The position numbers and the translations under genes were made by a program. Shown one piece after another: positions 22,435 to 57,386 of a stretch of DNA of 64,000 nucleotides. The stretch spans positions 19,562 to 83,561 of the forward strand of contig JBGAJV010000014.1 in assembly GCA_044224715.1 (NCBI GenBank). Reading direction: 5' to 3'. Each line of letters starts with the position of its first letter. Within the stretch, counting starts at the first letter, position 1. Origin of the DNA: Anaerolineales bacterium (GTDB lineage Bacteria > Chloroflexota > Anaerolineae > Anaerolineales > UBA6663). The notes under the pieces were generated by a model that had not been told where the DNA came from, did no database searches, and saw only the letters and a program-made list of their open reading frames with translations.

Positions 22435-24111
<1,677 letters not shown>

Positions 24112-41614: not shown

Positions 41615-41744
41615 ATTAATCCTGAGCGGCGCCGCGATTATAGCATGCCGACATCCGCAAGAGCCGTGCGGTGGGCGCAAAGTTTGACATGCCACGACCT
41701 TTTCGTTATACTTGCTCCGCTGTCTGAATCACCGACAGCGGACT

Positions 41745-41828
41745 GCCGAAGTGGCGGAATTGGCAGACGCGCCACGTTCAGGGCGTGGTGGCCGTAAGGC
41801 TGTCTGGGTTCAACTCCCAGCTTCGGCA
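41745..41828 (+). tRNA. tRNA-Leu (anticodon CAG), long variable arm
   Basis: GCCGAAGTGGCGGAATTGGCAGACGCGCCACGTTCAGGGCGTGGTGGCCGTAAGGCTGTCTGGGTTCAACTCCCAGCTTCGGCA. Anticodon loop is TTCAGGG. Confidence 0.9.
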
Positions 41829-41832
41829 CCTC

Positions 41833-42489: not shown

Positions 42490-42561
42490 TGCGGGGTAGA
42501 GCAGAGGCAGCTCGTCGGGCTCATAACCCGGAGGTCGCAGGTTCGAATCCTGTCCCCGCTA
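42490..42561 (+). tRNA. tRNA-Met (anticodon CAT), initiator-like
   Basis: GCTCGTCGGGCTCATAACCCGGAGGTC closely resembles the E. coli tRNA-fMet anticodon arm, with three G-C pairs next to the loop. Position 1:72 is unpaired (T:T). CCA is not encoded. Confidence 0.8.
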
Positions 42562-42568
42562 CTGAGAA

Positions 42569-42815: not shown

Positions 42816-43184
42816 TTAGAACAACCCGTTTGTGTGAACAGGGGCAACGTTTCCGAGGTCGTGCTCGACGCAGTCCCAATGCTCCGCCAGCTTTCCGTCT
42901 TCAATGCGGTACATGTCAAACACCTTGTTGATCATCCCATTGGTGCCCAGGGTGCACTTGAAGAACACGCACACCATGTCGCCATCCGCCAGGATGTGGA
43001 GGATGTCCATACGGGGTTTCATCGTCAGGAATTTCTCGCTGAATCGGCGAAACCCTTCTCTTCCATCCTCGACCTGCGCGTTGTGCTGCTTGTAGTCTTC
43101 GCGCATGTAGAGATCCAGACGGCTGGTATCCCATCCATTGAAGACTTCTTCATAAAACTTCAGCACCAGTTCCTTGTTTGTCAT
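42816..43184 (-). CDS. SnoaL-like / NTF2-fold protein
   Basis: MTNKELVLKFYEEVFNGWD...YKQHN...AEHWD is the SnoaL-like ester-cyclase pattern. It is visibly less GC-rich than its neighbours. Confidence 0.7.
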   Translation of the reverse strand: MTNKELVLKFYEEVFNGWDTSRLDLYMREDYKQHNAQVEDGREGFRRFSEKFLTMKPRMDILHILADGDMVCVFFKCTLGTNGMINKVFDMYRIEDGKLAEHWDCVEHDLGNVAPVHTNGLF

Positions 43185-43244
43185 GCTTCTTATCCCCGAG
43201 ACCTGACTCGATGACCGGCCCTTCGTTCAGCGATGTGCCGTGAC

Positions 43245-43895
43245 TCACTCGGTTCGACGCCGGCGACGGACCACGCCGGCAGATGCAGCCGTCGCAAAAG
43301 TGCCCACAGGGATTGGGGCATCCGGCAGCCTGGGCTTCACGGGGCCGGACTTGGCGATCGCGCCCTGCGGGCAGACCCTCAGGCATTCGCCGCAGCGCGT
43401 ACAGCGTGCCTCATCGACGACGGCGATCAGGCCCGGGCCGCCGGCGATCGCGCCGACCGGGCAGGCCTTGATGCACGCCGTATCGCCCTGGCACCGATCG
43501 GGCAGGCAGATCACGCTGATGTACGCCTTGCATACAAGCGCCGCACAGCGTTTGCGGTTGCAGTGCGCATCCCACTCGGCTGCGTAGCGATCGAGGCTGA
43601 ACAGGACGCCCCGCGCGGCCGTCAGCGCCGCGTCGCAATCGCCCATCGCCGCGATGTACTCGACGACGTCGCGCAGCATGGCCAGGTCACCGGGCTGGCC
43701 GGCGCCGGTTGTGATGTCTGTGATGATCGCCTGCACCTGCGTCAGGCCGTCGCGGCAGGTGACCGATCGGCCGCAGCTGGTCTGCCGGGCCTCGGCCACG
43801 CGCTCGCGCGCCCACTCGACCGGGCACACGCCCTCCGCGAGTGGCGCGAGTGTTTCTGTAACTGGCTGTTGCTGAAGGTCGATGTCGGTCGACAT
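43245..43895 (-). CDS. Fe-S protein: NuoF C-terminal-like domain (degenerate Cys motif) fused to a 2x[4Fe-4S] ferredoxin domain
   Basis: SCGRSVTCRDG...GDCDAAL resembles the NuoF 4Fe-4S domain (canonical SCGxCxPCREG) but lacks the middle Cys. C-terminal CQGDTACIKACP and CTRCGECLRVCP. Confidence 0.6.
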   Translation of the reverse strand: MSTDIDLQQQPVTETLAPLAEGVCPVEWARERVAEARQTSCGRSVTCRDGLTQVQAIITDITTGAGQPGDLAMLRDVVEYIAAMGDCDAALTAARGVLFSLDRYAAEWDAHCNRKRCAALVCKAYISVICLPDRCQGDTACIKACPVGAIAGGPGLIAVVDEARCTRCGECLRVCPQGAIAKSGPVKPRLPDAPIPVGTFATAASAGVVRRRRRTE

Positions 43896-43904
43896 GGCGC
43901 GCCC

Positions 43905-44585
43905 CTATTTCACCGCGTACTCGGACCAGATGCGCGACTCTCGGAAGATCCCGAACTGATCTTGCAGAGCGCCCGTCGGGCAGACGGCGACGCAGGCCGA
44001 ACAGAAGCGGCAGCCGGCCTCGCCGAGCGGCACGTCGCCGGCCGTGCCGACGTAGACCTCGTCGCCACGGCGGTTGAAGCCGAGGATGCCGACGCCGCGC
44101 AGGTCGTCGCAGGCGCGCACGCAGCGCCCGCATTGGATGCAGCGCTCCATCTCGCGCACGACAATCGGGTTGTCGACGTTGAGATGATCCGTCTTCCGTG
44201 ACGTGACGCGCATGCGCGAGTGAACCGTGCCCAGGTACTGGATCATGGCCTGGAGCTCGCAGTTCATGTAGCGCTTGCAGCTGACGCAGTCCTTGGGGTG
44301 GCCGGCGAGCATGAGCTCGAGCGCCACCTTGCGGCGTTGCAGCAGCGCCGACGATTTGGTGACCACCTGCAGCCCTTCGGTGGCGGGCAGTTCGCAAGAG
44401 CAGACCACGCCGTCTCGGCCGGCCACTTCCACGACGCACAGCTTACAGTTCGCCTGCGGCGGCAGATCCGGATGGCTGCACAAATGTGGAATGTAGATCC
44501 CGGCGTCGAGCGCGGCGTTCAGGACGCTCTGCCCCTGCTTCGCGCTGATCGTCTTGCCATCTACGGTGAGGGTCACCCGATCCAT
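43905..44585 (-). CDS. NuoG/HydA-N-terminal-like Fe-S electron-transfer protein (2Fe-2S, His-ligated 4Fe-4S, two 4Fe-4S)
   Basis: MDRVTLTVDGK...C..x..CKLC...C; HPKDCVSCKRYMNC; CIQCGRCVRAC; CRFCSACVAVCP. No catalytic domain follows. ATG at 44585. Confidence 0.7.
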   Translation of the reverse strand: MDRVTLTVDGKTISAKQGQSVLNAALDAGIYIPHLCSHPDLPPQANCKLCVVEVAGRDGVVCSCELPATEGLQVVTKSSALLQRRKVALELMLAGHPKDCVSCKRYMNCELQAMIQYLGTVHSRMRVTSRKTDHLNVDNPIVVREMERCIQCGRCVRACDDLRGVGILGFNRRGDEVYVGTAGDVPLGEAGCRFCSACVAVCPTGALQDQFGIFRESRIWSEYAVK

Positions 44586-44603
44586 GTCGACTGCTTCTCC
44601 ATC

Positions 44604-44650
44604 AGAAAAAAAGCGAAGCCGGGTGGGCAACGGGCCCACCCGGCTTCGCT
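44604..44650 (-). terminator. Strong intrinsic terminator or attenuator between the flavoprotein and Fe-S genes
   Basis: 17-bp stem agcgaagccgggtgggc / gcccacccggcttcgct with a 5-nt loop. The minus strand has a T7 run after it. Confidence 0.75.
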
Positions 44651-44655
44651 CTGCG

Positions 44656-46134
44656 TTACGCCGCCACGGTCTCCAGCGAGTTGATGAACTCCGCGGCCTG
44701 TTCAGCGGCCAGCCGACCGGAGTTCAGGGCGAAGCCCATCGTGTTGCCGGGCAGGTAGTACAGGTACGTCCCTGCGTACAGATCGCACACGTCCGAGCCG
44801 GCGGCGTAGAGGCCGTAGAGCTTCTTGCCTTCCTGCGTCAGAACCTGGTAGTGCGAGTCGATTTTGATGCCGCCCAGCGTGCCGTACGCGCCGGGTACGA
44901 TGCGCAGGATGTAGAACTTCTTGCCCTCGAGCGGGGTCAGGAAGCGGCGGTCCTTGCAGAAGAGATCGTCGTAGTGCAGGGCGCAGCTCTCGTTGTACTC
45001 CGCCAGGGTCTTCATGAACGTTTCGACGTCGATGCCCATCAGGCGCGCGGCCTCTTCAGGCGTGTCCGCGATGGAGGCTTCGCCCGGGAACTGCGTCATG
45101 GCCTTCTGCATCCAGGCTTCAGCGTCGGCGGTGTAGTCGGCCTTGATCACGCCGTTGACCCAATCCACGCCCTGCTTGCGATAGAGGTCGAAGATGTTGT
45201 CGGTGCTGAACACGTACAGGCAGCGGTCCGACTGGCGCACCGAGACGTTGGCCGTCACGGCCGTGTTCTGCAGCACAGCCTCATCCATCACGCGCTTGCC
45301 TTCTTTGTTGACGATCAGGCTGCGCGGCTGCTGCATGGCGATGGTGTAGACAAACCCGGCCAGCATGTGCACGTGGCCACAGTCCATGATCATCTCCATG
45401 TCCATGTTGCCCTTGCCGGCCCCGGCCTCCCAGGCCATGCGCAGACCGTCGCCCGTCAGGCCCGGGATGCGGAAGTTGAACATGTCCTTCCCGTAGGTGA
45501 AGCCGCAGTGCTCCTTGATCATGTCCGGGTTGTCGCCGAAGCCGCCGGTGGCGATGAGCGTCGCGGCGGCCTCCACCTCGTATTCCTCGCCGTCCTTGCT
45601 CTTGGCCACCAGGCCGACGACGTCTTCGCCATCGCGCGTGAGCTTCACGGCGGGCGTGTCGAAGTAGAAGGTCACGCCCAGCTCGACCGCGCGTTCGTAC
45701 ATCAGCTTCATCATGGTCGAGGCGCAGCGCGGCCCCGGGTGGCTCCCGTCGGCGGGCTGGACCACATGCCAGGTGGCGTGGCCTTCGGGGTAGTACTTCA
45801 TCGCGCCAACGAAGCGCACGCCCATCTTCTCGAGCCAATCGATGGTGTCGGCGGACTTCCAGAAGTAGTCGCGCACCATGCGCGCGTCCACCTGCCAATG
45901 GGTGTAGTCCATCATCAGCTTGAACGCTTCTTCTTTGGTCAGGCCGATCATCGATTCCTTCTGGATCCGGCTCTCGACCGCGAACGGTCCCATGCCCATG
46001 TTGGACGTTCCACCGGGCACGCTCGACTTCTCGAACACTGAGACGTTCAGCCCCTTCTCGGCGCCGGTGATGGCGGCGGCAATGCCCGCCGGACCTGCGG
46101 CGATGATGGCGAGATCGGTTGTGATTTTCTTCAT
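44656..46134 (-). CDS. FAD-dependent oxidoreductase (FAD_binding_2; fumarate/urocanate-reductase-like flavoprotein)
   Basis: N-terminal dinucleotide fold DLAIIAAGPAGIAAAI..EK....GGTS. ATGGFG block. C-terminal GLYAAGS. Confidence 0.75.
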   Translation of the reverse strand: MKKITTDLAIIAAGPAGIAAAITGAEKGLNVSVFEKSSVPGGTSNMGMGPFAVESRIQKESMIGLTKEEAFKLMMDYTHWQVDARMVRDYFWKSADTIDWLEKMGVRFVGAMKYYPEGHATWHVVQPADGSHPGPRCASTMMKLMYERAVELGVTFYFDTPAVKLTRDGEDVVGLVAKSKDGEEYEVEAAATLIATGGFGDNPDMIKEHCGFTYGKDMFNFRIPGLTGDGLRMAWEAGAGKGNMDMEMIMDCGHVHMLAGFVYTIAMQQPRSLIVNKEGKRVMDEAVLQNTAVTANVSVRQSDRCLYVFSTDNIFDLYRKQGVDWVNGVIKADYTADAEAWMQKAMTQFPGEASIADTPEEAARLMGIDVETFMKTLAEYNESCALHYDDLFCKDRRFLTPLEGKKFYILRIVPGAYGTLGGIKIDSHYQVLTQEGKKLYGLYAAGSDVCDLYAGTYLYYLPGNTMGFALNSGRLAAEQAAEFINSLETVAA

Positions 46135-46221
46135 GGTGCGCCTCTTTGAGTGATTCTGAATGGACTGACCACAGGCTGCGCCCGTCGTGCGGACGCCAGT
46201 CGTTGTTCCTTCGCGTGTTCC

Positions 46222-47322
46222 CTAATCCGGGAAGCCGTTCCAGCGCGGCTCGCCCGTGTACTCGCGCGCCGTCTCGACGCCGCTCAGCACGCGGATGGCC
46301 CCGGCGGCCATGGCTTCAAGTTCGAACTCCCCCGGATACGCCGACACGGGCGCGATCCAGGAGCAGGCGGCTTCGATCTTCTGAACGAGATCCTGGTTGT
46401 GGACGAGGCCTCCGCCGAGGAGGATGCCGTCCACCTTGCCCTTGAGCACCGTGCTCATCATGCCGATGTGCTTGACGATCTGGTAGATCATGGCGTCCCA
46501 GGCCCGGGCCGCCGCGGCGTCTCCAGTCGGGATGCGGACCGCCGTGACTTCCTTGAGGTCGGCGGTGCCGAGCAGGCTGACGAACCCGCCCGACTTCGTG
46601 CACAGGTCGCGGGCGGATTTGACGTCGTGATCCTTCAGGTAGTCGAGCAGCTCCGCCACCGGGATCGACCCGCAGCGCGTCGGAGTCAGCGGCCCGTCGC
46701 CGCCGACGATGTCGTTGCCGTCGATCATGCGGCCCTTCTCGTGGGCCGAGATCGAGATGCCCCCGCCGATGTGGCAGACGATGAAGTTGCAGTCTTCGTA
46801 GCTGCGCCCGATCGTCGCCGCGTGGCGGAGCGCGGTCTCTTTCAGGTTGAGCGCGTGCAGGTGGCATCGGCGATAGACGCCCTTGATTCCCGTCATCCGG
46901 GCCAGGTCGCAGAACTCGTCGGTGTCCGGCGGGTTGACCACGTAGGCCGGCTTGTGGTGCCGCTTCGCCAGTTCGTCGGCCAGCTGGCTGCCCAGTTGGG
47001 CCGGGTGCTGCACGCCGTTGGCGCCCCGTCGCGCGTGATCGATCAGGGTCGGGCCGATCGCGTACACGCCGCCTTCGACCGGCAGCAGCCCGCCGCCGCG
47101 CCCGACGAACGCATCGACGTCATCGAGCGTGATGCCGCGCTCGGCGAGCTGGCGCAGGATCGTGTCGCGTCGGTACGGCAGCTGGTCGCTGATCGTCGCG
47201 AACGATTTCAGGTCCGCGGCCGAGTGCTCGACGTTCGCCTGGAACACGATCTCGTCGCCGCGAAACAGGCCGACCTTGGTTGAGGTCGAGCCCGGGTTGA
47301 TCACGAAAATCGTCTCTGCCAT
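46222..47322 (-). CDS. buk: Butyrate (short-chain acyl) kinase
   Basis: MAETIFVINPGSTSTKVGLF (ASKHA phosphate-1) with butyrate-kinase-like length and blocks. ATG at 47322 with an AGGAAG RBS; an alternative GTG is at 47328. Confidence 0.85.
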   Translation of the reverse strand: MAETIFVINPGSTSTKVGLFRGDEIVFQANVEHSAADLKSFATISDQLPYRRDTILRQLAERGITLDDVDAFVGRGGGLLPVEGGVYAIGPTLIDHARRGANGVQHPAQLGSQLADELAKRHHKPAYVVNPPDTDEFCDLARMTGIKGVYRRCHLHALNLKETALRHAATIGRSYEDCNFIVCHIGGGISISAHEKGRMIDGNDIVGGDGPLTPTRCGSIPVAELLDYLKDHDVKSARDLCTKSGGFVSLLGTADLKEVTAVRIPTGDAAAARAWDAMIYQIVKHIGMMSTVLKGKVDGILLGGGLVHNQDLVQKIEAACSWIAPVSAYPGEFELEAMAAGAIRVLSGVETAREYTGEPRWNGFPD

Positions 47323-47344
47323 GTTCACTTCCTGGCCGGCTCAT

Positions 47345-47430
47345 GGACACGGAGGACACGGATCTGCACGGATGACACAGATCGTTTGAAGTTCCGTGTC
47401 ATCCGGCTTTTTCCGAGAGATCCGTGTACG
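47345..47430. repeat. Sub-repeat-built palindromic element (CACGGAT type) between ptb and buk
   Basis: ggacacggaggacacggatctgcacggatgacac ... gtgtcatccggctttttccgagagatccgtgtacg. Confidence 0.75.
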
Positions 47431-47439
47431 TCTCGCGTC

Positions 47440-48459
47440 CTACGATTTCCTCGAAGCCGCCTCGAGATGGCCGGCGCGAACGGCCGAGATGGCGATGTTG
47501 CCGACGATCTCGGAGATCGGCGCGCCGCGCGAGCAGTCGCACACGATCTTTTTGAAGCCCTGCAGCATCGGCCCATACGCATCGGCCTGCGCGAACTGTT
47601 GGACCAGCTTCACGCCGATGTTGCCGACGTTCAGGTCTGGCCAGATGATGATGTTGGCGCGGCCTGCCACGCGGCTCTCGCGCTTGACTTTCTTGGCAGC
47701 GACCGCGGGGTTGATCGCGGCGTCCAGCTGGAACTCGCCGTCGATCGCCAGGTCTGGCCGGCGCTCGTTGGCGATCTTCAATGCGTCGAAGACCTTGTCG
47801 ACCAGCGGGCCGTTGCCGCTGCCACAGGTCGAATACGACAGCAACGCGCAACGTGGCTCCCAGCCGAGCAGGCCTTGCAAGGTGTCGCAGGCCGCGATCG
47901 CGATGCTGGCGAGTTGCTCGGCATCCGGGTTGGTGCAGACGGCGCTATCGCCGAACGCGAGGAGCGTGCCTTCCGAGCCGGCGAAGCCTGGGATATTGAA
48001 GATGCCGAGGCTCGAGATCGTGCTGATGTTGTCGGCCAGGCCGATCAGGGTCTGGCCGGCCAGGATGACTTCCTCGGTCGTGGTCTCGATGCCCGCGAAC
48101 GTGCAGGCGACGTCGCCGACCGCCTCCATGGCCATCGCGAAGTAGAGCGGGTTCGGCATGCGCCTCCCGAGCGACTTCGCGCTGAGGAGCGCGCCCGGCA
48201 GGGCGACGTACCGCGCGATGATCGAGTCGCGGTAGGCCGCATCCTGAATGTCGACGTAGGTGAAGACGCCGCTGTCCAGGCCACGCTGGGCGCAGAGTTC
48301 CTTGAGCGCCGCCGGGTCGCCCACCAGGACCGGCACGATGTAGCCCTGGCTGCCCGCCTCGTGGGCGGCCCGCATCATCTTTTCGTTCGAGGCCTCGGGA
48401 AACGCCACGCACTGCGGGTCGGCCTTGGCTCGGGCATACACAAAGTCCAGGATGTTCAT
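47440..48459 (-). CDS. ptb: Phosphate butyryl/acyltransferase (PTA_PTB family), intact copy
   Basis: 339 aa, MNILDFVYARAKADPQCVAFPEASNEKMMRAA... It has PTA_PTB family length and lies next to buk. Confidence 0.85.
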   Translation of the reverse strand: MNILDFVYARAKADPQCVAFPEASNEKMMRAAHEAGSQGYIVPVLVGDPAALKELCAQRGLDSGVFTYVDIQDAAYRDSIIARYVALPGALLSAKSLGRRMPNPLYFAMAMEAVGDVACTFAGIETTTEEVILAGQTLIGLADNISTISSLGIFNIPGFAGSEGTLLAFGDSAVCTNPDAEQLASIAIAACDTLQGLLGWEPRCALLSYSTCGSGNGPLVDKVFDALKIANERRPDLAIDGEFQLDAAINPAVAAKKVKRESRVAGRANIIIWPDLNVGNIGVKLVQQFAQADAYGPMLQGFKKIVCDCSRGAPISEIVGNIAISAVRAGHLEAASRKS

Positions 48460-48537
48460 CTGCCCCTCCGGGCTGCCTCGGCCCGCGCAGTTCGGCGGGT
48501 GGGGCAGTCGGGTTGTGTGAGTGTGACGGTCGGCGCC

Positions 48538-48763
48538 TTATTCGATCCGGGCGCAGACCTCGTCCACCATGTCGCCGATCGTCTTCATCTTGCTGGCTTC
48601 AGGCAGCGGGATGAGCACGTCGAGTTCGTTCTCGACCGTGGAGACCAGGGCGACCATCAGCAGGGACTTCGACGACAGCTCTTCGACGATCCGCGTGTCA
48701 CGGCTCAGGGCGGCGACGTCCTTCTTGTAGGTCATCGCAAAACACTGCAGGACCTTGGCTTCG
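48538..48763 (-). pseudogene. 3' fragment of the ACP gene (duplication remnant)
   Basis: Identical to 49978-50203 except for one substitution. It lacks the first 8 codons. Homology stops at 48763/48764, where buk-derived sequence begins. Confidence 0.8.
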
Positions 48764-48847
48764 CTGGAACACGATCTCGTCGCCGCGGAAGAGGCCGACC
48801 TTGGTCGAGGTTGAGCCGGGGTTGATCACAAAAATCGTCTCTGCCAT
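48764..48847 (-). pseudogene. 5' fragment of buk (first ~28 codons; duplication remnant)
   Basis: Encodes MAETIFVINPGSTSTKVGLFRGDEIVFQ, then runs out of frame into the ACP fragment. Homologous to 47239-47322 with several substitutions. Confidence 0.8.
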
Positions 48848-48870
48848 CACGACACTCCGGTCATGTGTTT

Positions 48871-48954
48871 GTACGCGGATCACGCGGGTCACGCGGATGA
48901 AGGCCGATGACGCGGATTCCGTGTGATCCGCTTTCATCCGCGTGATCCGCGTAC
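48871..48954. repeat. Sub-repeat-built palindromic element (CGCGGAT type)
   Basis: gtacgcggatcacgcgggtcacgcggatgaa ... ttcatccgcgtgatccgcgtac. It occupies the position that the CACGGAT-type element holds in the other duplication unit. Confidence 0.8.
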
Positions 48955-48964
48955 AAAATCACCC

Positions 48965-49899
48965 TCATCCCTTAGAAACCGCCTCGAGATGGCCGGCGCG
49001 AACGGCCGAGATGGCGATGTTGCCGACGATCTCGGAGATCGGCGCGCCGCGCGAGCAGTCGCACACGATCTTTTTGAAGCCCTGCAGCATCGGCCCGTAC
49101 GCATCGGCATGCGCGAACTGTTGGACCAGCTTCACGCCGATGTTGCCGACGTTCAGGTCCGGCCAGATGATGATGTTGGCGCGGCCCGCGACGCGGCTCT
49201 CGCGCTTGACTTTCTTGGCAGCGACCGCGGGGTTGATCGCGGCGTCGAGCTGGAACTCGCCGTCGATCGCGAGGTCCGGCCGGCGTTCGTTGGCGATCTT
49301 CAGCGCCTCGAGCACCTTGTCGACCAGCGGGCCGTTGCCGCTGCCAGAGGTCGAATACGACAGCAACGCGCAGCGCGGCTCCCAGCCGAGCAGGCCCTGC
49401 AGGGTGTCGCAGGCCGCGATCGCGATGCTGGCCAGCTGCTCGGCGTCCGGGTTGGTGCAGACCGCGCTGTCGCCGAAGCCGAGCAGCGTGCCCTCGGAGC
49501 CTTCGAAGCCCGGGATGTTGAAGATGCCGAGGCTCGAGATCGTGCTGATGTTGTCGGCCAGGCCGATCAGGGTCTGGCCGGCCAGGATGACTTCTTCGGT
49601 CGTGGTCTCGATGCCCGCGAATGTGCAGGCGACGTCGCCGACCGCCTCCATGGCCATCGCGAAGTAGAGCGGGTTCGGCATGCGGGAATGTCGACGTAGG
49701 TGAAGACGCCGCTGTCCAGGCCACGCTGGGCGCAGAGTTCCTTGAGCGCCGCCGGGTCGCCCACCAGGACCGGCACGATGTAGCCCTGGCTGCCCGCCTC
49801 GTGGGCGGCCCGCATCATCTTTTCGTTCGAGGCCTCGGGAAACGCCACGCACTGCGGGTCGGCCTTGGCTCGGGCATACACAAAGTCCAGGATGTTCAT
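48965..49899 (-). pseudogene. Phosphate butyryltransferase copy disrupted by an 82-nt net deletion
   Basis: The N-terminal 70 codons equal the intact copy. 83 nt (48163-48245 in the intact copy) are replaced by a single g at 49685. This shifts the frame and splits the gene into ORFs 49567-49899 and 48965-49852. Confidence 0.8.
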
Positions 49900-49977
49900 C
49901 TGCCCCTCCGGGCTGCCTCGGCCCGCGCAGTTCGGCGGGTGGGGCAGTCGGGTTGTGTGAGTGTGACGGTCGGTGCC

Positions 49978-50229
49978 TTATTCGATCCGGGCGCAGACCT
50001 CGTCCACCATGTCGCCGATCGTCTTCATCTTGCTGGCTTCAGGCAGCGGGATGAGCACGTCGAGCTCGTTCTCGACCGTGGAGACCAGGGCGACCATCAG
50101 CAGGGACTTCGACGACAGCTCTTCGACGATCCGCGTGTCACGGCTCAGGGCGGCGACGTCCTTCTTGTAGGTCATCGCAAAACACTGCAGGACCTTGGCT
50201 TCGATGGCTTGCTTGTCCATGAGGGTCAT
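49978..50229 (-). CDS. Acyl carrier protein (83 aa)
   Basis: Four-helix ACP pattern with the candidate phosphopantetheine serine in EELSSKSLLMVALVSTVENEL. The start overlaps the DUF35 stop by 4 nt. Confidence 0.7.
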   Translation of the reverse strand: MTLMDKQAIEAKVLQCFAMTYKKDVAALSRDTRIVEELSSKSLLMVALVSTVENELDVLIPLPEASKMKTIGDMVDEVCARIE

Positions 50230-50630
50230 TCCTTCACGAGGTCGAACACGACGGTCTTGTACCCGTCCTTCTGGACGATGCGGGCCTTGATCGGCACGGG
50301 CAGGCGGGGCACGATGTCTTTCTTGGTCTTCTTGGTGACGCCGCAGACGATGGCGTTGAACTTCGCGCCCTCTTCGAGCTCGACGCAGCCGTAGCAGTAC
50401 GGCTGCAGGAATTCGTTATCAGGCCGGGTCGACATCACGCCGGGCAGGACGAAGTCGAACATCGTGGCCTTGCCGCTGATCTCCACCCATTCCATGTCGG
50501 TGCAGGAGCAGCCATTGCAGGCGATGACCGGCGGGAACTCGACGACGCCGCAGCGCTTGCACTTGCGCCCCATCATTTTTCCCTCTTCGAGGGACGTGTA
50601 AAACCGCTTGACGATAGGTTCCATGTTCAT
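50226..50630 (-). CDS. DUF35 Zn-ribbon / OB-fold protein (thiolase partner)
   Basis: CKRCGVVEFPPVIACNGCSC rubredoxin-like ribbon followed by an OB-fold. Lies immediately downstream of the thiolase-like gene. Confidence 0.8.
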   Translation of the reverse strand: MNMEPIVKRFYTSLEEGKMMGRKCKRCGVVEFPPVIACNGCSCTDMEWVEISGKATMFDFVLPGVMSTRPDNEFLQPYCYGCVELEEGAKFNAIVCGVTKKTKKDIVPRLPVPIKARIVQKDGYKTVVFDLVKE

Positions 50631-50643
50631 GATGTCGCCTCGC

Positions 50644-51924
50644 TCAATTCAGCGCGCCGAGGATGATGGCCGCCAGGTTCTGGCCGCCGCCGAAGCCGCG
50701 CAGCATCGTGTGCTTCGGAAGCTTCTTGACCTGCCGCTCGCCGGCCAGGCCGCGCATCTGCTGGACGGCTTCGAAGATGTCGGCCATGCCGGAGGCCGCG
50801 TGTGCGTGCCCGAAGGAGGCGCGGCCGCCGTTGGTGTTGATCGGGCGGTCGCCGTCGTAGGCCGTGCGCCCGTCCATGATGTACTTCCAGCCCTCGCCCT
50901 TGGGCAGATAGCCCGCGATCTCGGCCGCGATCAGGTGCGAGGTGATGATGAAGTCGTTGGCGTAGAAGAGGTCGATGTCGCTCGGCGTCAGGCCGGTCAC
51001 CTCGTAGGCCTGACGGACCGCTTCCTCCGTGCCGCGCATCTCGAGATGGGCCTGCGACCCTTCGAGCGCGGCGTTGCCGATGCCCAGCACTTCGATGGGT
51101 GTGCCCTTGAAGTCTTTGGCCATCTCGGTCGGGCAGACGATAACGGCGGCGGCGCCGTCGCACTTCGTCTCGAAGCCGCTGATACGCAGGTACTCCGATA
51201 GCTTGGGGTTGAAGGGCGAGCGCATGAACGCCATCACATCGTCGAACCCGTTCTCTTTGGCGAGGTCCTTGAACTCGGTGCGATTGATCGCCAGCGGGCA
51301 CTTCGCCGCGTTGCGCCGGTTGTTGATGGCCGCCGCGTTGAGGATGTCGTCCATCTTCTCGTCGGTCAGGCCGTAGGCGTGGGTGTACCAGGCTGCGACG
51401 TCGTCGAACGCGATCATGGGGCCGGCGGCCAGCGGCCGGCTGTAAGCCCTGTCGTAGATCAGCTTGGTCGAGACGATGAACTCTTCGAACGAGAACTTGC
51501 GACGCATGTGCGCCGGCATGTTGGCGACGGGCAGGCTGTCGGCCAGATCGACACAGCCCGAGAGCACGACGTCGAACTTGCCCGAGGCCACCGCGTTGAC
51601 CGCCAGATCCAGCGCCAGATACCCCGAGCAACAGGCCTCGGAGTGGTGGGCCGAGCCTTTGCCGCGCATGCCGAACCAGTCGGCGACCTGCATGTTGGGC
51701 GTGATGTAATCCGAGCCCATGTAGGGGTTGGCCTGGGTGTGGAAATAGAAGTCGACGTCCTTGGCTTCGACGCCGGCGTCTTCCATCGCCGCAAGGGAGG
51801 CGTAGCCAAAGACCTCGCCTTCCGACAAGCCCTCAGTCGCAGGGTTGTCCAGGAAGTTCATGAAGGGCGTGCAACCCACGCCGATGATGGATACGCTTCT
51901 GCTGTACTTGCCCAGTTTGACCAT
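50644..51924 (-). CDS. SCP-x-type thiolase-like protein
   Basis: ATG at 51924 with an AGGAG RBS. VSIIGVGCTPF, nucleophile block EACCSGY, and C-terminal NTNGG and GHAHAASG blocks. Confidence 0.8.
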   Translation of the reverse strand: MVKLGKYSRSVSIIGVGCTPFMNFLDNPATEGLSEGEVFGYASLAAMEDAGVEAKDVDFYFHTQANPYMGSDYITPNMQVADWFGMRGKGSAHHSEACCSGYLALDLAVNAVASGKFDVVLSGCVDLADSLPVANMPAHMRRKFSFEEFIVSTKLIYDRAYSRPLAAGPMIAFDDVAAWYTHAYGLTDEKMDDILNAAAINNRRNAAKCPLAINRTEFKDLAKENGFDDVMAFMRSPFNPKLSEYLRISGFETKCDGAAAVIVCPTEMAKDFKGTPIEVLGIGNAALEGSQAHLEMRGTEEAVRQAYEVTGLTPSDIDLFYANDFIITSHLIAAEIAGYLPKGEGWKYIMDGRTAYDGDRPINTNGGRASFGHAHAASGMADIFEAVQQMRGLAGERQVKKLPKHTMLRGFGGGQNLAAIILGALN

Positions 51925-52302
51925 AGCGTGTCTCCTTTCAAGACAACTGCTCGTCATCCGGTTGTTTGGCGCGGGCCGTGATCCTGCCGTCGACCGTCGC
52001 TGGCCGGAAAACCCCGTCAGAGAGGAGGGCGACGAGGGTCGAAAATACGACCGCTCTTGTGCTGATTTACAAACGCTACCTCTGGCTGTTGGCCGAGGAT
52101 TGACCCGAAAACCAGGCAAAGCCCGGGTTCGGTCACCCAAACGCTTGCTTTTCGATGATAAGCCGCTTGAATGACATCGTTTTTGTGAGCCCACCCAAAA
52201 TAACCGCTTCTGGCCAGGGCCCCTTGTTGTGCTACAGTACAAGGGTCGCCGCGGCCGCTGGGCATCAACCGAATTCTGGAAAGATGTCAGGAGGAGCGCC
52301 AG

Positions 52303-53952
52303 ATGAAACTAACTATCGAACGAGTGATGAACCTGCTGGCGGACCTAGGGGCTGAATGGGTTCGGACCGGATCCACCCCGGTCGTCCTGAACGCGGTTGC
52401 GAACCTTCCGGCGGAAGGCGCATTGACCCAGCCCGACGTGCTGTACGTGGCCAACACCTCCGAGTTGAGCAACGACAACGCCGCGCAAGGCGTCCGGCAC
52501 CTGGTGTGTGTCGCGGATGCCGGGATACCGGATGGGCTGACGCAGCTAGACGACCTCAACCTGATCGTGCTGCCAGCCGCCGCCGATCGCGCTGCCGCGA
52601 TTCAAAGAGTGCAGGACTGGTTCGCCGCGCAGCGCCGCTTTGCTCAGGTGCGCGAAGACATTCTGGATGCGCTGTTCGCCGGCAATGGTCTGCAGGCCAT
52701 CGCCGACAAGGGTTTCGAGCTGCTCGGGAACCCCATCTTCATCAACGACACAAGCCTCAAGAGTCTGGCGCGGTCGCGCGGTGTCGTCGTCGACGACCCG
52801 ACCATGAACGCCATCATCGAACGCGGTTATCTGGATCAGCGAACGATCAACTCCCTCAGGAGCGATCGCATCCTGCGAAAGCTGGCCGACGGTGATCCGC
52901 CTTTCATCGTCAAAGAGTGGAGCGAGGCGCGGGGGATCCCGTATGCGAAATACGGCTGGCTGCAGGCCGGCGTGCGCATTCGTGGGACGTTCGTGGCCAT
53001 CCTGGCCGTCTTCGGTTGCTTTGAGCCTTACAGCGAATACGCCCTCGAGTGGGTCGAAGGACTGTGCAAACTGGCGGCGATTGAGCTTCAGAAAAGCGAG
53101 TTCTTCATTCAAACGCATGGCCTGATCTATGAAGCGTTGATCAACGACCTGCTCGAGCGACGGCTGACCGACACCAAGACGATCCAGCTCAGGCTCAAGG
53201 CGCTTGAGATTACCCTTCACCCCGATCTCTACGTGGTCGCCGTCCGCAAAGAGCGTCAGGATGCCGCCAGAGACGGCGCACATCCCATCAGCCATTCCCG
53301 GCTTCGCGAGATCCTGCCGGGCAGCATGTCGGTGGATTTCCGAGGCGACGTCGTTTTGCTGCTCAGTCGGAAGAAGGGCGCGCCGATTCTGAGCGATGAG
53401 GAACGGGCCGACCTGATCGACTATCTCGAGTCGAATAAATGGGCCGCCGGTATCAGCAACGTCTTTGCCGATCTCTCCGAGATGTCCCGGTACTATCTCC
53501 AGTCCGTGAAGTCCCTGGAGCTGGGGCGGCAGATCGACGCGGCCGGCGTGCTCCATGCATACGCGCGCTTCGCCATCTTCCACGTGCTCGAAGCTTGCGC
53601 CGGCGAGGTCGATCTACACGAGATCTGCCATCCAGGCCTGCGGCAACTGGCCGAAAGCGACGATCCGGCGGATCGTGAACTGCTGCAGACGCTCTACCTG
53701 TACCTGTCGGACCTGAAGAATCCCACGGGCGTGGCCGCTGATCTGCACATTCATCGCAACACGTTGTTCTACCGGATCAACAAGATCGAGGGCCTGCTGG
53801 GGTGCGACCTGCACCAGGGAGACGTGATCTTCGATCTGCTGTTCTCTTTCAAACTGATCCGGTATCTCGCCAGTGTAGACGCGCAGCGTGCGCCTCTCTT
53901 GGTCTCACGACAGGCTCTTCCCACGCCGACGCTGAATTCCGGCCATGCGTGA
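52303..53952 (+). CDS. PucR/CdaR-family transcriptional regulator
   Basis: C-terminal HTH LHIHRNTLFYRINKIEGLLG. Divergent from the thiolase operon. Confidence 0.8.
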   Translation: MKLTIERVMNLLADLGAEWVRTGSTPVVLNAVANLPAEGALTQPDVLYVANTSELSNDNAAQGVRHLVCVADAGIPDGLTQLDDLNLIVLPAAADRAAAIQRVQDWFAAQRRFAQVREDILDALFAGNGLQAIADKGFELLGNPIFINDTSLKSLARSRGVVVDDPTMNAIIERGYLDQRTINSLRSDRILRKLADGDPPFIVKEWSEARGIPYAKYGWLQAGVRIRGTFVAILAVFGCFEPYSEYALEWVEGLCKLAAIELQKSEFFIQTHGLIYEALINDLLERRLTDTKTIQLRLKALEITLHPDLYVVAVRKERQDAARDGAHPISHSRLREILPGSMSVDFRGDVVLLLSRKKGAPILSDEERADLIDYLESNKWAAGISNVFADLSEMSRYYLQSVKSLELGRQIDAAGVLHAYARFAIFHVLEACAGEVDLHEICHPGLRQLAESDDPADRELLQTLYLYLSDLKNPTGVAADLHIHRNTLFYRINKIEGLLGCDLHQGDVIFDLLFSFKLIRYLASVDAQRAPLLVSRQALPTPTLNSGHA

Positions 53953-53985
53953 GGGCTGGTTCGGCTGACTCGACGCTGACCGTGT

Positions 53986-54738
53986 TCAGGCGCTCTCAGG
54001 CCAGCGCCAGCGCTCGACCTGCCAGTGAAGGCCGGGCAGGGCCACGGCCGCCTGATAGTCCGTGGCAGGGGTCAGGGTCTGCACAGACCAGTTGGCCGCC
54101 TCGATCGCATCCCCCTGGATGTGCATCAATCGGGGCGGGGCGCTTGCGAAGAGCGCCACATCGAATGCGTTCAGAGGAAAACCCAATCCCTCTCCCCGCG
54201 CCTTGACGAAAGCTTCTTTGCAGGTCCAATAGCAATAAAACGCCTCGAGTTTCTGGCTCTCCTCGAGTTGATTCCAATCCGTTCGTTCCTTGGGCGAGAA
54301 GAAGCGGTTGACCAGGGTTGCCATGGCGTCAAGCGGCCGCATCCATTCGACATCGACGCCGACGTCCTGGCCATAGGCCACCGCGCACAGACCGATCTCG
54401 TGTGACCGTGACAGATTGAAGCGCACGCTGTCGCCCTGGCCTTCCGAGAGGAAGGGCTTGCCATATGGGCCGTGGTTGAACGTGAGGTGTTCAGGAGCCG
54501 TGTTCGTATATCGGCTCAGGATCTGCCTCAGCCTCCCATGGGCGACGATGTACCGTCGTCGATCCCGTTCAACGCGCAGCCGATGCGCTGTGTCTTTTTC
54601 AGAAGCTGAGAGCAGAGTCTCCAATCCCGCCGTGATCGGTTCGGGCCGGTCCAGGCCAAAGGACCAGACGTGGAGACTCGAAGGGCCCCATGCGACGTTC
54701 GTTGGGGGAGGCAGCCATCGATCGAGATCAGGCAGCAT
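53986..54738 (-). CDS. Sfp-type 4'-phosphopantetheinyl transferase
   Basis: FNLSRSHE, GVDVE and WTCKEAFVKARGEG motifs. ATG at 54738. Confidence 0.8.
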   Translation of the reverse strand: MLPDLDRWLPPPTNVAWGPSSLHVWSFGLDRPEPITAGLETLLSASEKDTAHRLRVERDRRRYIVAHGRLRQILSRYTNTAPEHLTFNHGPYGKPFLSEGQGDSVRFNLSRSHEIGLCAVAYGQDVGVDVEWMRPLDAMATLVNRFFSPKERTDWNQLEESQKLEAFYCYWTCKEAFVKARGEGLGFPLNAFDVALFASAPPRLMHIQGDAIEAANWSVQTLTPATDYQAAVALPGLHWQVERWRWPESA

Positions 54739-54899
54739 CCCCGGATCATACCTTCCCAACCCGCTTGACCTCGCCCACCCATGTGGGCCCCCTCGGACGA
54801 ACCCTGTTGTGTGGCGACACTTGCGCATGACATTTGTCCGTGAGTCGTAGTGAGGGCAAGACTTGACACACCCCAAGCACCTGCCCTACTATCCGACCA

Positions 54900-54932
54900 T
54901 CCACTATGTGGATGTATTGTCCACAAAGCGGA
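54900..54932. promoter_or_regulatory. Two copies of the 13-bp palindromic motif TCCRCWWWGYGGA upstream of the MFS gene (candidate operator)
   Basis: tccactatgtgga (54900-54912) and tccacaaagcgga (54920-54932). The same motif recurs at 59777, 62120, 62342 and 62362. Confidence 0.5.
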
Positions 54933-55039
54933 CAACCCGGCAATCAGAACATCCAGGCGTCCATAGGGACGTGTCCTGGCCGGTCGCAACCGGCCATGCA
55001 GCTCTCATTCGCTCTCTGAGGATCGATAGAAAGGCAATC

Positions 55040-56242
55040 ATGAACACGAGCGCAACGAAGAACAAAGGATTGATGGTGACGATCCTGTCCATCTCATTCC
55101 TGTTGATGCTGCGGTTGACGATCTCCCCGGCCCTCGCGGAGATCGGCAAGGCCTTCCCCGGCGTGAGCCAGGAAGCGCTGATGAACATGGTCTCGCTGGC
55201 CTCACTGGTAGCTATCCCCTTCGGGTTCCTGGCGGGCGTCCTGGCCAACCGCTTCCGGACTCGCACGCTGCTGTTCGTGGGCCTCGCCCTGTACATCGTG
55301 GGCGGCATGGGACCGATGCTGACCTCGGACTTCACCGTGATCCTGGTCTGCCGCGCGTTGCTCGGCGCTGGCACCGGCATCTTCCTGCCGTATGCGGCCG
55401 GCCTGATCGCCGACTTCTACACCGGCCAGGCGCGCGACGTCATGCTCGGCTATCAAAGCACTGCAGTGGCGCTGGGCAACATCATCACGGCGATCCTGGC
55501 GGGCGTCCTGGCGACGTTCTCGTGGCGGCTGTCGTTCCTGATCTATGCCTTCGCGATCGTGACCCTGGTCCTGGTCGTACTCAAGCTGCCCGAGCCGCAA
55601 CGCACGCAGCCGAGTGGCAAGCAGGAGAGCGGCTTCAACCGTGGCGTGGTGACGGTCTGCGTGTTGATCTTCTTCTACGCGGTCATCTACTTCGCGATCT
55701 TCGGCTACCTGTCGTTCGTCGTGGATAGCCACAAACTGGGCGATGCGGCCTCGACCGGTCTGGCCACCATGATCATGACAGTCATGTCGATGGTCAGCGG
55801 CGTGCTTTTCGCCAGGATCATCGGCCTGCTCCGCCAGTTCTCGGCTTTCGTGGCGCTGCTCCTGAACGCCGTCGGCTTCTTCCTGCTCTCGATCGCGACG
55901 GACATGAGCCTGATCTTCGCCGGCGCGGCCTTCATCGGCCTGGGGTTCGGCCTTCTGATGCCCTACGGCACGATGAAGGTCACTGACGCGGCGCCAAAAT
56001 CTGCGGCAACCTTTGCCAACGGCCTGTACATGACGTTCGTCAATCTGGGCACTGCCGCCTCGCCGACGATCCTGGTCACCATCGGGAGCGTGTTCGGAAA
56101 CCCGGATGGCCAGTTCATCTACCGGGTGTGCGCGATCGTCCTGGTCGTTGCCGCCGTCATCGCCGTCGGAGTGGCGTTTGTCGTGAATCAACGGAAGCCG
56201 GGCGCCGTGCCCGCTTCGTCCGACAAACCGGCTGCGGCATAA
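55040..56242 (+). CDS. MFS transporter
   Basis: 12 predicted TM helices. ATG at 55040 follows the motif pair. Confidence 0.8.
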   Translation: MNTSATKNKGLMVTILSISFLLMLRLTISPALAEIGKAFPGVSQEALMNMVSLASLVAIPFGFLAGVLANRFRTRTLLFVGLALYIVGGMGPMLTSDFTVILVCRALLGAGTGIFLPYAAGLIADFYTGQARDVMLGYQSTAVALGNIITAILAGVLATFSWRLSFLIYAFAIVTLVLVVLKLPEPQRTQPSGKQESGFNRGVVTVCVLIFFYAVIYFAIFGYLSFVVDSHKLGDAASTGLATMIMTVMSMVSGVLFARIIGLLRQFSAFVALLLNAVGFFLLSIATDMSLIFAGAAFIGLGFGLLMPYGTMKVTDAAPKSAATFANGLYMTFVNLGTAASPTILVTIGSVFGNPDGQFIYRVCAIVLVVAAVIAVGVAFVVNQRKPGAVPASSDKPAAA

Positions 56243-57248: not shown

Positions 57249-57386
57249 GCCAGCGACGCCCACAGACGAGGCGTCATCTTTTCAATCGATCTGCGCTCGA
57301 CAACATCGCGAACCCCTGAGGCCCCGGAAACCGTGCCGCGGGTGGTTCGCGCTGTCGTTGAGAGGCCACACCTTGCGAGTGCTCTC

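Follow-up and report, generated by a model that had tools for sequence, protein, structure and literature searches.

The window analysed here is a stretch of 64,000 nucleotides from an Anaerolineales bacterium (assembly GCA_044224715.1, contig JBGAJV010000014.1, positions 19,562 to 83,561), with a G+C content of about 65%. Between 42.8 and 54.7 kb it contains a cluster in which the genes of a thiolase-fold enzyme and its DUF35 partner stand together with those of a small acyl carrier protein (ACP), a phosphate acyltransferase and an acyl-phosphate kinase, a set of five that we call the core. The open reading frames (ORFs) of the window were searched against the Pfam and NCBIfam families and tRNA genes were located with ARAGORN. 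All the genes that a first-pass annotation of this DNA had listed for the interval, from the thiolase to the SnoaL-like protein and including the regulator and the phosphopantetheinyl transferase, are present at the same coordinates and strands, and the family searches support their assignments, with some scores below cutoff (DUF35, and the ACP when taken alone).

On the minus strand, read from right to left, the cluster starts with the SCP-x/archaeal-type thiolase-fold enzyme (50644-51924; Thiolase_C_1, E 3e-31) and the DUF35 protein, predicted to have a zinc ribbon and an OB fold (50226-50630; zf-ChsH2, OB_ChsH2_C). There follow the 83-amino-acid (aa) ORF of the ACP (49978-50229; PP-binding), a duplicated and broken stretch, the intact Pta-like phosphate acyltransferase of 339 aa (47440-48459; PTA_PTB, E 3e-81) and a butyrate-kinase-family acyl-phosphate kinase, Buk (46222-47328; TIGR02707, NF002834), whose start is probably the ATG at 47322. 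Then come a flavoprotein that is a candidate C=C reductase (44656-46134; Pfam FAD_binding_2, E 3e-54), a truncated Fe-S protein of 244 aa resembling the N-terminal part of NuoG (43905-44639; Pfam Fer2_4, NADH-G_4Fe-4S_3, Fer4_Nqo3; likely start at the ATG at 44585), a fusion of a NuoF-C-terminal-like [4Fe-4S] domain with a 2x[4Fe-4S] ferredoxin (43245-43895; NADH_4Fe-4S, E 5e-13, and Fer4, E 1e-11) and a SnoaL-like protein of the NTF2 fold (42816-43184; Pfam SnoaL, E 7e-16, and SnoaL_2, E 1e-13). The hairpin and T run noticed earlier after the flavoprotein gene were found at 44652-44610 of the same strand, between the flavoprotein and NuoG-like genes, as a terminator-like structure of 19 pairs (13 G-C). 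Divergent from the thiolase gene, with 378 nt between them, lies the gene of a PucR/CdaR-family regulator on the plus strand (52303-53952; HTH_30, E 2e-16, and GGDEF_2), and convergent with the latter, on the minus strand, that of an Sfp/HetI-type 4'-phosphopantetheinyl transferase (PPTase; 53986-54738; ACPS, E 1.5e-19, and AASDHPPT_N), to which the NCBIfam HetI model gave 200 bits, below its cutoff.

We have compared 80 genome and 80 metagenome loci, plus annotated neighbourhoods, and the gene order of the core is not due to chance, since far more than 100 independent loci share it. Of the genome loci, 68 extend for at least 4 kb beyond the thiolase on its downstream side; all 68 have DUF35, 60 have the ACP, 56 Pta and 49 Buk, and the full core was counted in 59; the 80 metagenome loci repeated the same core pattern, so the order thiolase-DUF35-ACP-pta-buk picked out in the window is strongly conserved. 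A second subset was formed by the 32 core loci that have 8 kb or more of flank on each side (well-flanked loci). In these an ene-reductase of any kind was found in 23 (FLR-like in 21, FAD_binding_2 in 11, OYE in one), a PucR regulator in 12, a DUF1097 membrane protein in 11, and a Gfo/Idh/MocA oxidoreductase and an esterase in nine each. A PPTase, of the AcpS or Sfp type, recurs in 15 of the 32, which bears out the inclusion of this gene in the cluster. The module is found mostly in gut and rumen Clostridia. The best 120 thiolase relatives in the database are 64-99% identical, some of them present on hundreds of contigs, and their hosts are Firmicutes of the gut and rumen, namely Hungatella, Mediterraneibacter glycyrrhizinilyticus, Blautia, Dielma fastidiosa, Schaedlerella, Pseudobutyrivibrio, Herbinix and metagenome-assembled genomes (MAGs) of Erysipelotrichaceae and Oscillospiraceae. 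Across loci, the Buk proteins are 53-67% and the Pta-like proteins 60-70% identical.

The genes accompanying the core vary. The smallest cluster, in Dielma, consists of PucR, a thiolase::DUF35 fusion of 596 aa, ACP, Pta, Buk and an esterase, which shows that these five proteins can suffice as a unit of their own. In Hungatella the core is accompanied by FLR-like, DUF1097, NuoG-GltD, NuoF-like and FAD_binding_2 genes, an alpha/beta-hydrolase, PucR and AcpS, and one locus (L171) holds FLR-like, OYE, FAD_binding_2, NuoG-GltD, PucR, the core, DUF1097 and PPTase in a single block. Two others (L092 and L093) have TetR, an Sfp-type PPTase, a 667-aa OYE/Fe-S/FAD enoate reductase, the core and a major facilitator superfamily (MFS) transporter. 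At 10.9-13.4 kb of these two loci the cluster adjoins a sigma-70-like gene, an HTH gene and a phage-type integrase, which suggests that the OYE-type cluster travels on a mobile element in this lineage. In Mediterraneibacter the core is surrounded by glycosidases (GH43, GH39, GH3 and GH35), a carboxylesterase, transporters of the MFS and MatE types and an FLR-like gene; the latter is directly followed (L089, 20003-21261) by the gene of a 92-aa ABM-fold (dimeric alpha+beta barrel) protein that could be a small chalcone-isomerase-like partner of the FLR-like enzyme. Neighbours in the Firmicutes include glycosidases of families GH3, GH35, GH39 and GH43, GPH and MFS transporters, Gfo/Idh/MocA oxidoreductases and esterases, which fits the use of plant glycosides. 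The gene of the four-helix DUF1097 protein follows buk in many of the Firmicute clusters, such as L017, L075, L089 and L171, and it may encode a transporter of the substrate or the acid product; the window has two MFS genes and no DUF1097.

The thiolase scored 108 bits with Thiolase_C_1 (cutoff 28) and 24.5 bits with Thiolase_N, slightly under cutoff, and all the NCBIfam thiolase and BbsB models gave scores far below cutoff. Its full-length relatives in the PDB are 7YVY, 6ESQ and BbsB 7PXP (E 5e-20 to 1e-27). In residue-level alignments Cys98 corresponds to the cysteine of the AACASG motif in 7YVY and 6ESQ, and His373 to the GH(P/A) motif; both residues are invariant in the 13 family members aligned. 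The HDCF acid/base motif of 6ESQ is replaced in this family by an invariant N323-D324-F325-I, in which the second cysteine is absent. This change would fit a self-stabilised phloroglucinolate as leaving group rather than an acetyl-CoA enolate.

This catalytic pair is also shared with PhlC. PhlABC (PpATase) of Pseudomonas protegens is a Friedel-Crafts acyltransferase independent of CoA (PDB 5M3K/5MG5; PMC6392133) and, like the pair in the window, it combines an SCP-x-type thiolase-fold subunit with a protein of the DUF35 (zinc-ribbon/OB) type. Crystals of PhlC soaked with monoacetylphloroglucinol showed acetyl-Cys88 and free phloroglucinol, with no CoA involved (PMC6392133). PhlC Cys88 and His347 (PMC6392133) match Cys98 and His373 of the window, a comparison that covers the catalytic pair, and the structures nearest to PhlC, 4YZO and 4BI9, are among the top matches of the window thiolase. 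Unlike in PhlABC, the acyl acceptor here would be the thiol of an ACP and not a second phenol, with phosphorolysis and ATP formation to follow, and the genomic context is catabolic, while that of PhlABC is the biosynthesis of 2,4-diacetylphloroglucinol (DAPG). The naringenin-cleaving 'chalcone-synthase-like' enzyme of B. subtilis was also considered as a relative and rejected, given that BcsA is a type III polyketide synthase (PKS) unrelated to the thiolase (PMC11943482).

In the DUF35 protein a zinc ribbon of the form CKRC...CNGC (CxxC...CxxC) is visible. Its two Pfam matches are both below cutoff (zf-ChsH2, 22.7 bits against 23.2; OB_ChsH2_C, 21.5 against 27.1), as weak as those of its orthologues, and the sole NCBIfam match is BbsA with a score far below cutoff. 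The ACP alone was also under the thresholds (PP-binding, 18.1 bits against 20.8; NCBIfam ACP, 42.6 bits, below cutoff). At the level of the family the picture is clear: PF00550 matched 17 of 17 members (best E 2e-11), and a profile made from the 17 orthologues retrieved 97 ACPs of the PDB (best E 9e-13). Ser43 (in the 83-aa numbering) is invariant in the 17 aligned members, shared by 95% or more of 43 sequences, and aligned with the canonical serine of the DSL motif (ADSL in 2LOL), the family motif being (A/K)-S-(V/L/I). The small protein is by family a genuine ACP, as proposed in the first-pass annotation, with predicted phosphopantetheinylation at Ser43. The translational coupling to DUF35 through a 4-nt overlap, which had been proposed together with it, does not hold up well. 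The homologues all begin at the residue equivalent to Met4 (MD[RK]...), where gene callers put the start 5 nt past the DUF35 stop, and because of this the overlap is doubtful and the ACP is more likely a protein of 80 aa predicted to start at 50220.

Of the two enzymes that would convert the thioester to ATP, the transacylase belongs only to the general PTA_PTB family, matched across its full length. The specific Pta models gave about 238-249 bits (cutoffs 310-311) and the Ptb model TIGR02706 gave 61 bits (cutoff 410), all under cutoff. The earlier assignment to two phosphate butyryltransferases, one broken, was right about the broken second copy, while the Ptb label was dropped since the Pta models score far higher (about 240-249 against about 61 bits). 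Buk is well above the cutoffs of both its models (TIGR02707, 372 bits against 289; NF002834, 410 against 222), and a kinase of the butyrate and not of the acetate type argues for a putative acyl group larger than acetyl.

The best NCBIfam model of the flavoprotein is the vinylphenol reductase VprA (276 bits, below the cutoff of 600), and in the PDB it comes nearest to flavocytochrome c fumarate reductase and to urocanate reductase, placing it as a candidate C=C reductase of the soluble fumarate/urocanate/vinylphenol reductase type. The NuoF-C/ferredoxin gene occurs together with the flavoprotein gene in about 27 loci. In the closest relative of the window, L001 (GCA_009612815.1), where the thiolase is 94% identical, the NuoG-like protein is a NuoG-GltD fusion of 707 aa that also has Fer4_20 and Pyr_redox_2 domains. 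The 244-aa ORF of the window corresponds to residues 1 to about 215 plus the last 13 (695-707) of this protein, indicating that an in-frame deletion took the Fer4_20/Pyr_redox_2 (GltD-like, NAD(P)H- and FAD-binding) module and kept the native stop. Of the 'private Fe-S wire' earlier attributed to the flavin reductase, the NAD(P)H-binding half is lost in the window. The SnoaL-like gene is found in only about 8 of 83 related loci and its product may be an isomerase, possibly a chalcone-flavanone isomerase.

The span described in the first-pass annotation, up to 54738, misses the informative genes at 55-64 kb, namely an FLR homologue and a set of phloroglucinol genes. The former, on the plus strand (56271-57248), encodes an FMN_red-family protein of 325 aa with a C-terminal zinc ribbon, whose sole PDB relative is 7D38-7D3B (E 2e-30, residues 1-314 against FLR 1-310), the flavone reductase FLR of Flavonifractor plautii (PMC7862272). 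In FLR, His271 binds the 7-OH of the A-ring and Ile275 stacks on the A and C rings (PMC7862272); both are conserved in the window protein, and Lys282 is replaced by Tyr. Another homologue of FLR, 29.7% identical, was shown to be functional (PMC7862272). The FLR-like enzyme is a candidate reductase of the C2=C3 bond of flavones. The OYE reductase of L092 has 2-naphthoyl-CoA reductase as its best PDB match, which places it at the level of the family only; OYE-type enoate reductases are, we assume, the family of Fcr/EnoR.

All four families of the anaerobic phloroglucinol pathway described in Clostridium scatologenes, PGR-DPGC-TfD-TAL (PMC10470551), were found at 60.1-64.0 kb. A short-chain dehydrogenase/reductase (SDR) on the minus strand (60115-60900; adh_short_C2) is the candidate phloroglucinol reductase, PGR, with 5G4K/5G4L as best PDB match (E 2e-66), structures that we take to be those of the Clostridium enzyme. 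The candidate dihydrophloroglucinol cyclohydrolase, DPGC, is a 'Cyclase'-family protein also on the minus strand (61286-62071; E 1e-38) and has the Trp20 and Tyr22 that separate CsDPGC from isatin hydrolase (PMC10470551). On the plus strand a protein of the 3-hydroxyacyl-CoA dehydrogenase family (62425-63360; 3HCDH_N, 3HCDH) is the candidate (S)-3-hydroxy-5-oxohexanoate dehydrogenase, TfD. It is followed by a BKACE-family protein (63404-64000; E 1e-59), cut by the end of the window and candidate for the triacetate acetoacetate-lyase TAL, the best NCBIfam model of this fragment being 3,5-dioxohexanoate:acetyl-CoA acetone transferase (E 5e-70). Between the PGR and DPGC genes there is a small cupin of 117 aa (60907-61260, minus strand; Cupin_2), for which the published phloroglucinol pathway has no assigned role. 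Compared with C. scatologenes, the window set has this extra cupin and an IclR gene, and it is a neighbour of the thiolase module rather than a part of it.

No Pfam match to DAPG_hydrolase (the Phy/PhlG type) was found among the island genes, and the thiolase/DUF35 pair is the sole candidate among the annotated ones to link reduced flavonoids with phloroglucinol. The pair is proposed as the C-C cleaver because the island has enzymes acting before and after phloroglucinol and no Phy/PhlG-type match. That the region from about 42.8 to beyond 64 kb is a catabolic island for plant polyphenols of the flavonoid or acyl-phloroglucinol type seems to us nearly, if not quite, an even bet. The catabolic context (regulators, transporters, glycosidases, ene-reductases and the adjoining phloroglucinol pathway) also makes cleavage the probable direction of the reaction. 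In the first-pass annotation the module was described as forming or cleaving a C-C bond on a carrier protein, coupled to a reduction and to substrate-level phosphorylation, possibly in a new catabolic route. The general idea and the catabolic route were retained on the strength of the neighbours, and bond formation and the tethered reduction were judged less probable. The reason for the latter is that three unrelated reductase families (FLR-like, FAD_binding_2 with NuoG-GltD, and OYE) interchange beside the same core and Dielma has none, indicating that the reduction probably acts on the free substrate upstream of the cleavage and not on a tethered intermediate. This swapping of non-homologous ene-reductases fits a core that accepts the product of an enone reduction.

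Putting these elements together, we propose that the module cleaves a reduced polyphenol aryl ketone, for instance a dihydrochalcone, in the manner of PhlC and passes the acyl group from cysteine to ACP, to phosphate and finally to ADP, replacing phloretin hydrolase; we hold this with a confidence somewhat short of one half. The transporters would take up the aglycone, and the FLR-like enzyme would saturate C2=C3 in flavones or flavonols. The chalcone or flavanone would be reduced by the FAD_binding_2 enzyme together with its Fe-S proteins, or in other lineages by the OYE enoate reductase. The resulting aryl ketone, such as a dihydrochalcone, would have a beta-triketone as its keto tautomer. 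Cys98 of the thiolase, in complex with DUF35, would attack the exocyclic carbonyl in a retro-Claisen/retro-Friedel-Crafts reaction, releasing phloroglucinol and leaving an acyl-cysteine enzyme, that is, the half-reaction of PhlC. From there the acyl group would move to the phosphopantetheine thiol of the dedicated ACP, made into its holo form by the clustered PPTase, the Pta-like enzyme would phosphorolyse the acyl-ACP to acyl-phosphate as PlsX does, and the butyrate kinase homologue would yield ATP and an arylalkanoic acid, with recycling of the ACP. In the window organism PGR-DPGC-TfD-TAL would then degrade the phloroglucinol. The five genes, as in the minimal Dielma cluster, fit a closed and self-sufficient cycle that compared with hydrolysis by Phy would gain one ATP per cleavage.

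Parts of this route have counterparts in known systems. Thiolytic cleavage of a beta-dicarbonyl that preserves the thioester is ordinary thiolase chemistry, while the hydrolytic Phy discards that energy. PlsX, an acyl-ACP:phosphate acyltransferase, is a precedent for the phosphorolysis of acyl-ACP; unlike it, the window transacylase is not of the PlsX family, and no Pta or Ptb model scores it above cutoff. The path from thioester to acyl-phosphate and ATP is that of Pta/Ptb-Ack/Buk, with a full-length PTA_PTB match and the Buk equivalog cutoff exceeded, the difference being that the donor here would be a dedicated ACP and not CoA. The gut pathway of flavones and flavonols, FLR-CHI-Fcr/EnoR-Phy, is known from Eubacterium ramulus and Flavonifractor plautii (PMC7862272, PMC10470551). 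The island resembles it in its full-length FLR homologue, in the OYE-type enoate reductases of related loci and in the phloroglucinol that would feed the adjoining PGR-DPGC-TfD-TAL genes. It differs in that neither a Phy/PhlG-type hydrolase nor a chalcone isomerase (CHI) of the E. ramulus type was seen among the island genes, in a cleavage that would be thiolytic/phosphorolytic with ATP where the gut pathway is hydrolytic, and in the FAD_binding_2 enzyme with its Fe-S partners as an additional or alternative reductase. The parts all belong to known families; what would be new is the combination and the ACP-mediated, ATP-yielding C-C cleavage of a free polyphenol.

Several observations weigh against this proposal. 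The direct evidence consists of family memberships, conserved catalytic and attachment residues, synteny counts, the gene neighbourhood in the window and the rearrangements relative to L001; the substrate class, the direction, the transfer of the acyl group to the ACP, the use of acyl-ACP by the Pta-like enzyme and the roles of the SnoaL-like protein, DUF1097 and the esterases are inferred from it. The match of PhlC to the window thiolase covers the C-terminal ~100 residues (E ~1e-14 to 1e-16), the thiolase being closer overall to the archaeal and SCP2-type CoA thiolases (7YVY, 6ESQ), and no gene similar to PhlA or HMGS (KAS III) was found in the island or in the annotated related loci. In about 165 other loci, tblastn with PGR, DPGC, TfD and TAL gave no real matches within 10 kb, and the phloroglucinol genes are linked to the thiolase module only in the lineage of the window. 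Homologues of FLR occur widely, and flavones need not be their substrates; the Dielma cluster, like several other core loci, has no reductase nearby. Some clusters carry esterase- or thioesterase-like genes, which would be wasteful if they hydrolysed the acyl-ACP. Butyrate kinases are not known to use arylpropionyl-phosphate. Finally, eight Lachnospiraceae loci (L008, L012, L013, L016, L027, L029, L031 and L042), with thiolases 66-68% identical to that of the window, carry the thiolase-DUF35 pair with no ACP, Pta or Buk in the vicinity. The neighbours of these pairs (MatE, PPK2-like and GH51-like genes, among others) gave no functional lead; their partners may be encoded elsewhere, or the pairs may have a different, CoA-dependent role.

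An alternative that keeps the mechanism and changes the substrate would have the module act on another beta-dicarbonyl not bound to CoA, for which triacetate (3,5-dioxohexanoate), dihydrophloroglucinol, curcuminoids and other plant beta-diketones, isoflavone products of the O-desmethylangolensin type and bacterial acetyl-phloroglucinols are candidates. All the arguments about the core mechanism apply to it equally, and the phloroglucinol neighbours would suit a diketone derived from phloroglucinol just as well. Besides, there are core loci without any reductase and the FAD_binding_2 enzyme is nearest to vinylphenol reductase, not to an enzyme of flavonoids. We nevertheless consider this alternative unlikely, given that for dihydrophloroglucinol and triacetate the window already has a DPGC and a TAL-type BKACE, that the in-operon FLR-like and OYE reductases point to enones upstream and His271 and Ile275 of FLR are conserved, and that a butyrate-type kinase speaks against acetyl as the acyl group. 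The cycle could also run in the anabolic direction, with Buk and the Pta-like enzyme loading an acid on the ACP at the cost of one ATP, and the thiolase/DUF35 complex C-acylating a nucleophile to give a secondary metabolite. Such C-acylation is the work of PhlABC and of the streptococcal HMGS/ACAT/DUF35 complex, and thiolase/DUF35 complexes serve it in DAPG biosynthesis (PMC6392133) and, reportedly, in tetramic-acid antibiotic biosynthesis (PMC12960953). A dedicated ACP and PPTase are typical of biosynthetic clusters. Pta and Buk are reversible, and the FakAB/PlsX system offers a precedent for the conversion of an acid to acyl-phosphate and then acyl-ACP. We regard this direction as improbable all the same: no PKS, nonribosomal peptide synthetase (NRPS), KAS III/PhlA-like or tailoring genes were found in any locus examined, the surrounding genes are those of catabolism (glycosidases, transporters of sugars and of the MFS type, PucR, IclR and AraC regulators, ene-reductases and, in the window, the phloroglucinol operon), and the module is spread widely among Clostridia that live by fermentation in gut and rumen, where the ATP yield matters.

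The remaining possibility for the chemistry is a conventional one, in which a BbsAB-like 3-oxoacyl-CoA thiolase acts on CoA esters in a route resembling beta-oxidation, Pta-Buk make ATP from acyl-CoA and the ACP and PPTase serve something else. The known CoA systems with a thiolase and DUF35 (7YVY, 6ESQ, BbsAB) do share with the window the pairing, a full-length relationship and the nucleophilic Cys plus His, and they provide the best full-length PDB relatives of the thiolase. BbsA is the sole NCBIfam match of DUF35, Pta-Buk normally use acyl-CoA, and the eight loci mentioned above lack the ACP. The substrates of those systems are CoA esters, and HMGCS is not present here. In nearly every core locus, however, the ACP gene separates DUF35 from pta, and a PPTase is often clustered with them. 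CoA ligase or transferase, enoyl-CoA hydratase and 3-hydroxyacyl-CoA dehydrogenase are not among the conserved genes, and all of them are absent from the minimal cluster of Dielma. In addition, the acid/base cysteine used with acetyl-CoA enolates is missing (HDCF of 6ESQ being NDF here) and the scores with the NCBIfam thiolase, archaeal thiolase, BbsA/BbsB, Pta and Ptb models are all far below cutoff, which leaves CoA chemistry, in our opinion, with very little probability. Cleavage of a reduced polyphenol with transfer to the ACP is the reading that we prefer.

The copy of the module in the window looks partly damaged, having a duplicated and broken pta and a NuoG-GltD without the NAD(P)H module. 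A tandem duplication of about 1.5 kb runs through pta, taking in the 3' part of acp at one end and the 5' part of buk at the other. Translations, repeats and alignments place its junction at 48525-48847 (minus strand), where the 5' end of buk (48764-48847) is joined to the 3' end of acp (48525-48763). When 48525-49985 is compared with 47234-48560, the two copies differ at one position over their first 315 nt (99.7% identity), the next 718 nt are 94% identical and the pta-buk spacer is divergent. In the upstream, Pta-like copy (48965-49918, minus strand) 82 nt are missing between the 315-nt and 718-nt stretches, a deletion at 49685/49686 that causes a frameshift. The broken copy is closer to the sequence of another strain, L088 (95%), than the intact one is (92%). 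This mosaic identity could be due to recombination between strains or to a chimeric metagenome assembly. An independent contig of the same strain (L084, 99.6% identical) goes directly from acp to the intact form of pta, and L001 has a single pta. The in-frame deletion in the NuoG-like gene (43905-44639 against L001 7209-9332) removed about 1.44 kb, a size similar to the spacing of the duplication, 1440-1525 nt, which may be a coincidence or the trace of one assembly or recombination event.

These features raise the question of whether the cluster is a decaying or misassembled, non-functional copy, by pseudogenisation or by a chimeric assembly of strain variants. The two structural differences from the 94% identical L001, the mosaic duplication with a frameshift and the loss in NuoG-GltD, lie within 6 kb, and the independent contigs of the same strain end within or just past pta. 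On the other hand, each core gene keeps one intact copy with the same length as in the relatives, the NuoG-GltD deletion is in frame with the native stop retained, and the G+C content at third codon positions is high across all genes. We think it unlikely on balance, if a good deal more than negligible, that the copy is non-functional, and this would in any case bear on the copy of the window alone and not on the identity of the module.

If the polyphenol cleavage proposed here is true, many gut and rumen Clostridia and, via transfer, some Chloroflexota gain ATP directly from the ring cleavage of flavonoids, by a non-hydrolytic alternative to phloretin hydrolase. The latter is, as far as we know, the only enzyme known for the last C-C cleavage of flavonoids, and it wastes the energy of the bond; a route from thiolase to ACP, phosphate and ATP would explain how fermenters profit from these compounds. 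The breakdown of flavonoids by gut and rumen bacteria sets the phenolic acids that reach the host and affects the balance of hydrogen and methane in rumen and peat, and the module would add a missing marker of polyphenol-degrading capacity in metagenomes. Two ideas would be new, the ACP as a carrier in catabolic substrate-level phosphorylation and an acyl-ACP phosphotransacylase of the Pta family. The first-pass annotation knew of no described pathway for the combination, and no description of the thiolase-DUF35-ACP-Pta-Buk set was found in the literature searched, which was mostly outside subscription journals and makes this weak evidence; the same search did turn up PhlABC, the thiolase/DUF35 complexes of archaea and streptococci, FLR and the pathway of phloroglucinol. 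There is a realistic chance that the module represents a new and widespread catabolic principle. The stronger claim, that it is a widespread energy-conserving C-C lyase with the first dedicated ACP to carry the acyl group from the thiolase cleavage of a free, non-CoA polyphenol to ATP, is more tentative, and we put it rather below even chances. Cultured hosts of the module include Hungatella hathewayi, Dielma fastidiosa, Mediterraneibacter glycyrrhizinilyticus, Schaedlerella arabinosiphila and Pseudobutyrivibrio xylanivorans.

The cluster starts right after a tRNA-Met (CAT) gene on the plus strand (42490-42562), which marks the left edge of the island, and the G+C content, 0.70-0.71 at 38-42 kb, is lower, 0.60-0.66, over 42-58 kb. 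A tyrosine recombinase/integrase gene is located to the left of the island (35665-36693), and no att-type repeat of the 3' end of tRNA-Met was found within the window. The placement of the cluster is the same in L001, so its insertion predates the split of the window strain and L001. The glutaminyl-tRNA synthetase (GlnRS) of the window is 76-78% identical to proteins of Anaerolineales, Thermoflexales and Chloroflexi MAGs, and the cluster proteins are 53-70% identical to their clostridial counterparts. These identities suggest that a Clostridia-type cluster, now in a Chloroflexota-like genome, has probably moved between phyla.

The rest of the island, to the right of the PPTase, contains two MFS transporters on the plus strand (54863-56242, MFS_1, E 1e-47, with a probable start near 55040; and 57333-58634, MFS_1, E 3e-39), flanking the FLR-like gene, and an IclR-family regulator on the minus strand (58800-59615; IclR_C, E 8e-45). 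Outside the island, a tRNA-Leu (CAG) gene is found at 41745-41830. The GlnRS gene (22435-24111, plus strand), whose product has a YqeY-type C-terminal domain, is adjacent to and convergent with a GluRS-type gene (24145-25668, minus strand). Just to the left of the tRNA genes, 38531-41695 on the minus strand encodes a histidine kinase of 1054 aa with a multi-pass membrane N-terminus, HisKA and HATPase_c domains and, before HisKA, a very long coiled coil rich in Ala, Glu and Arg; this gene is kept beside the island in L001.

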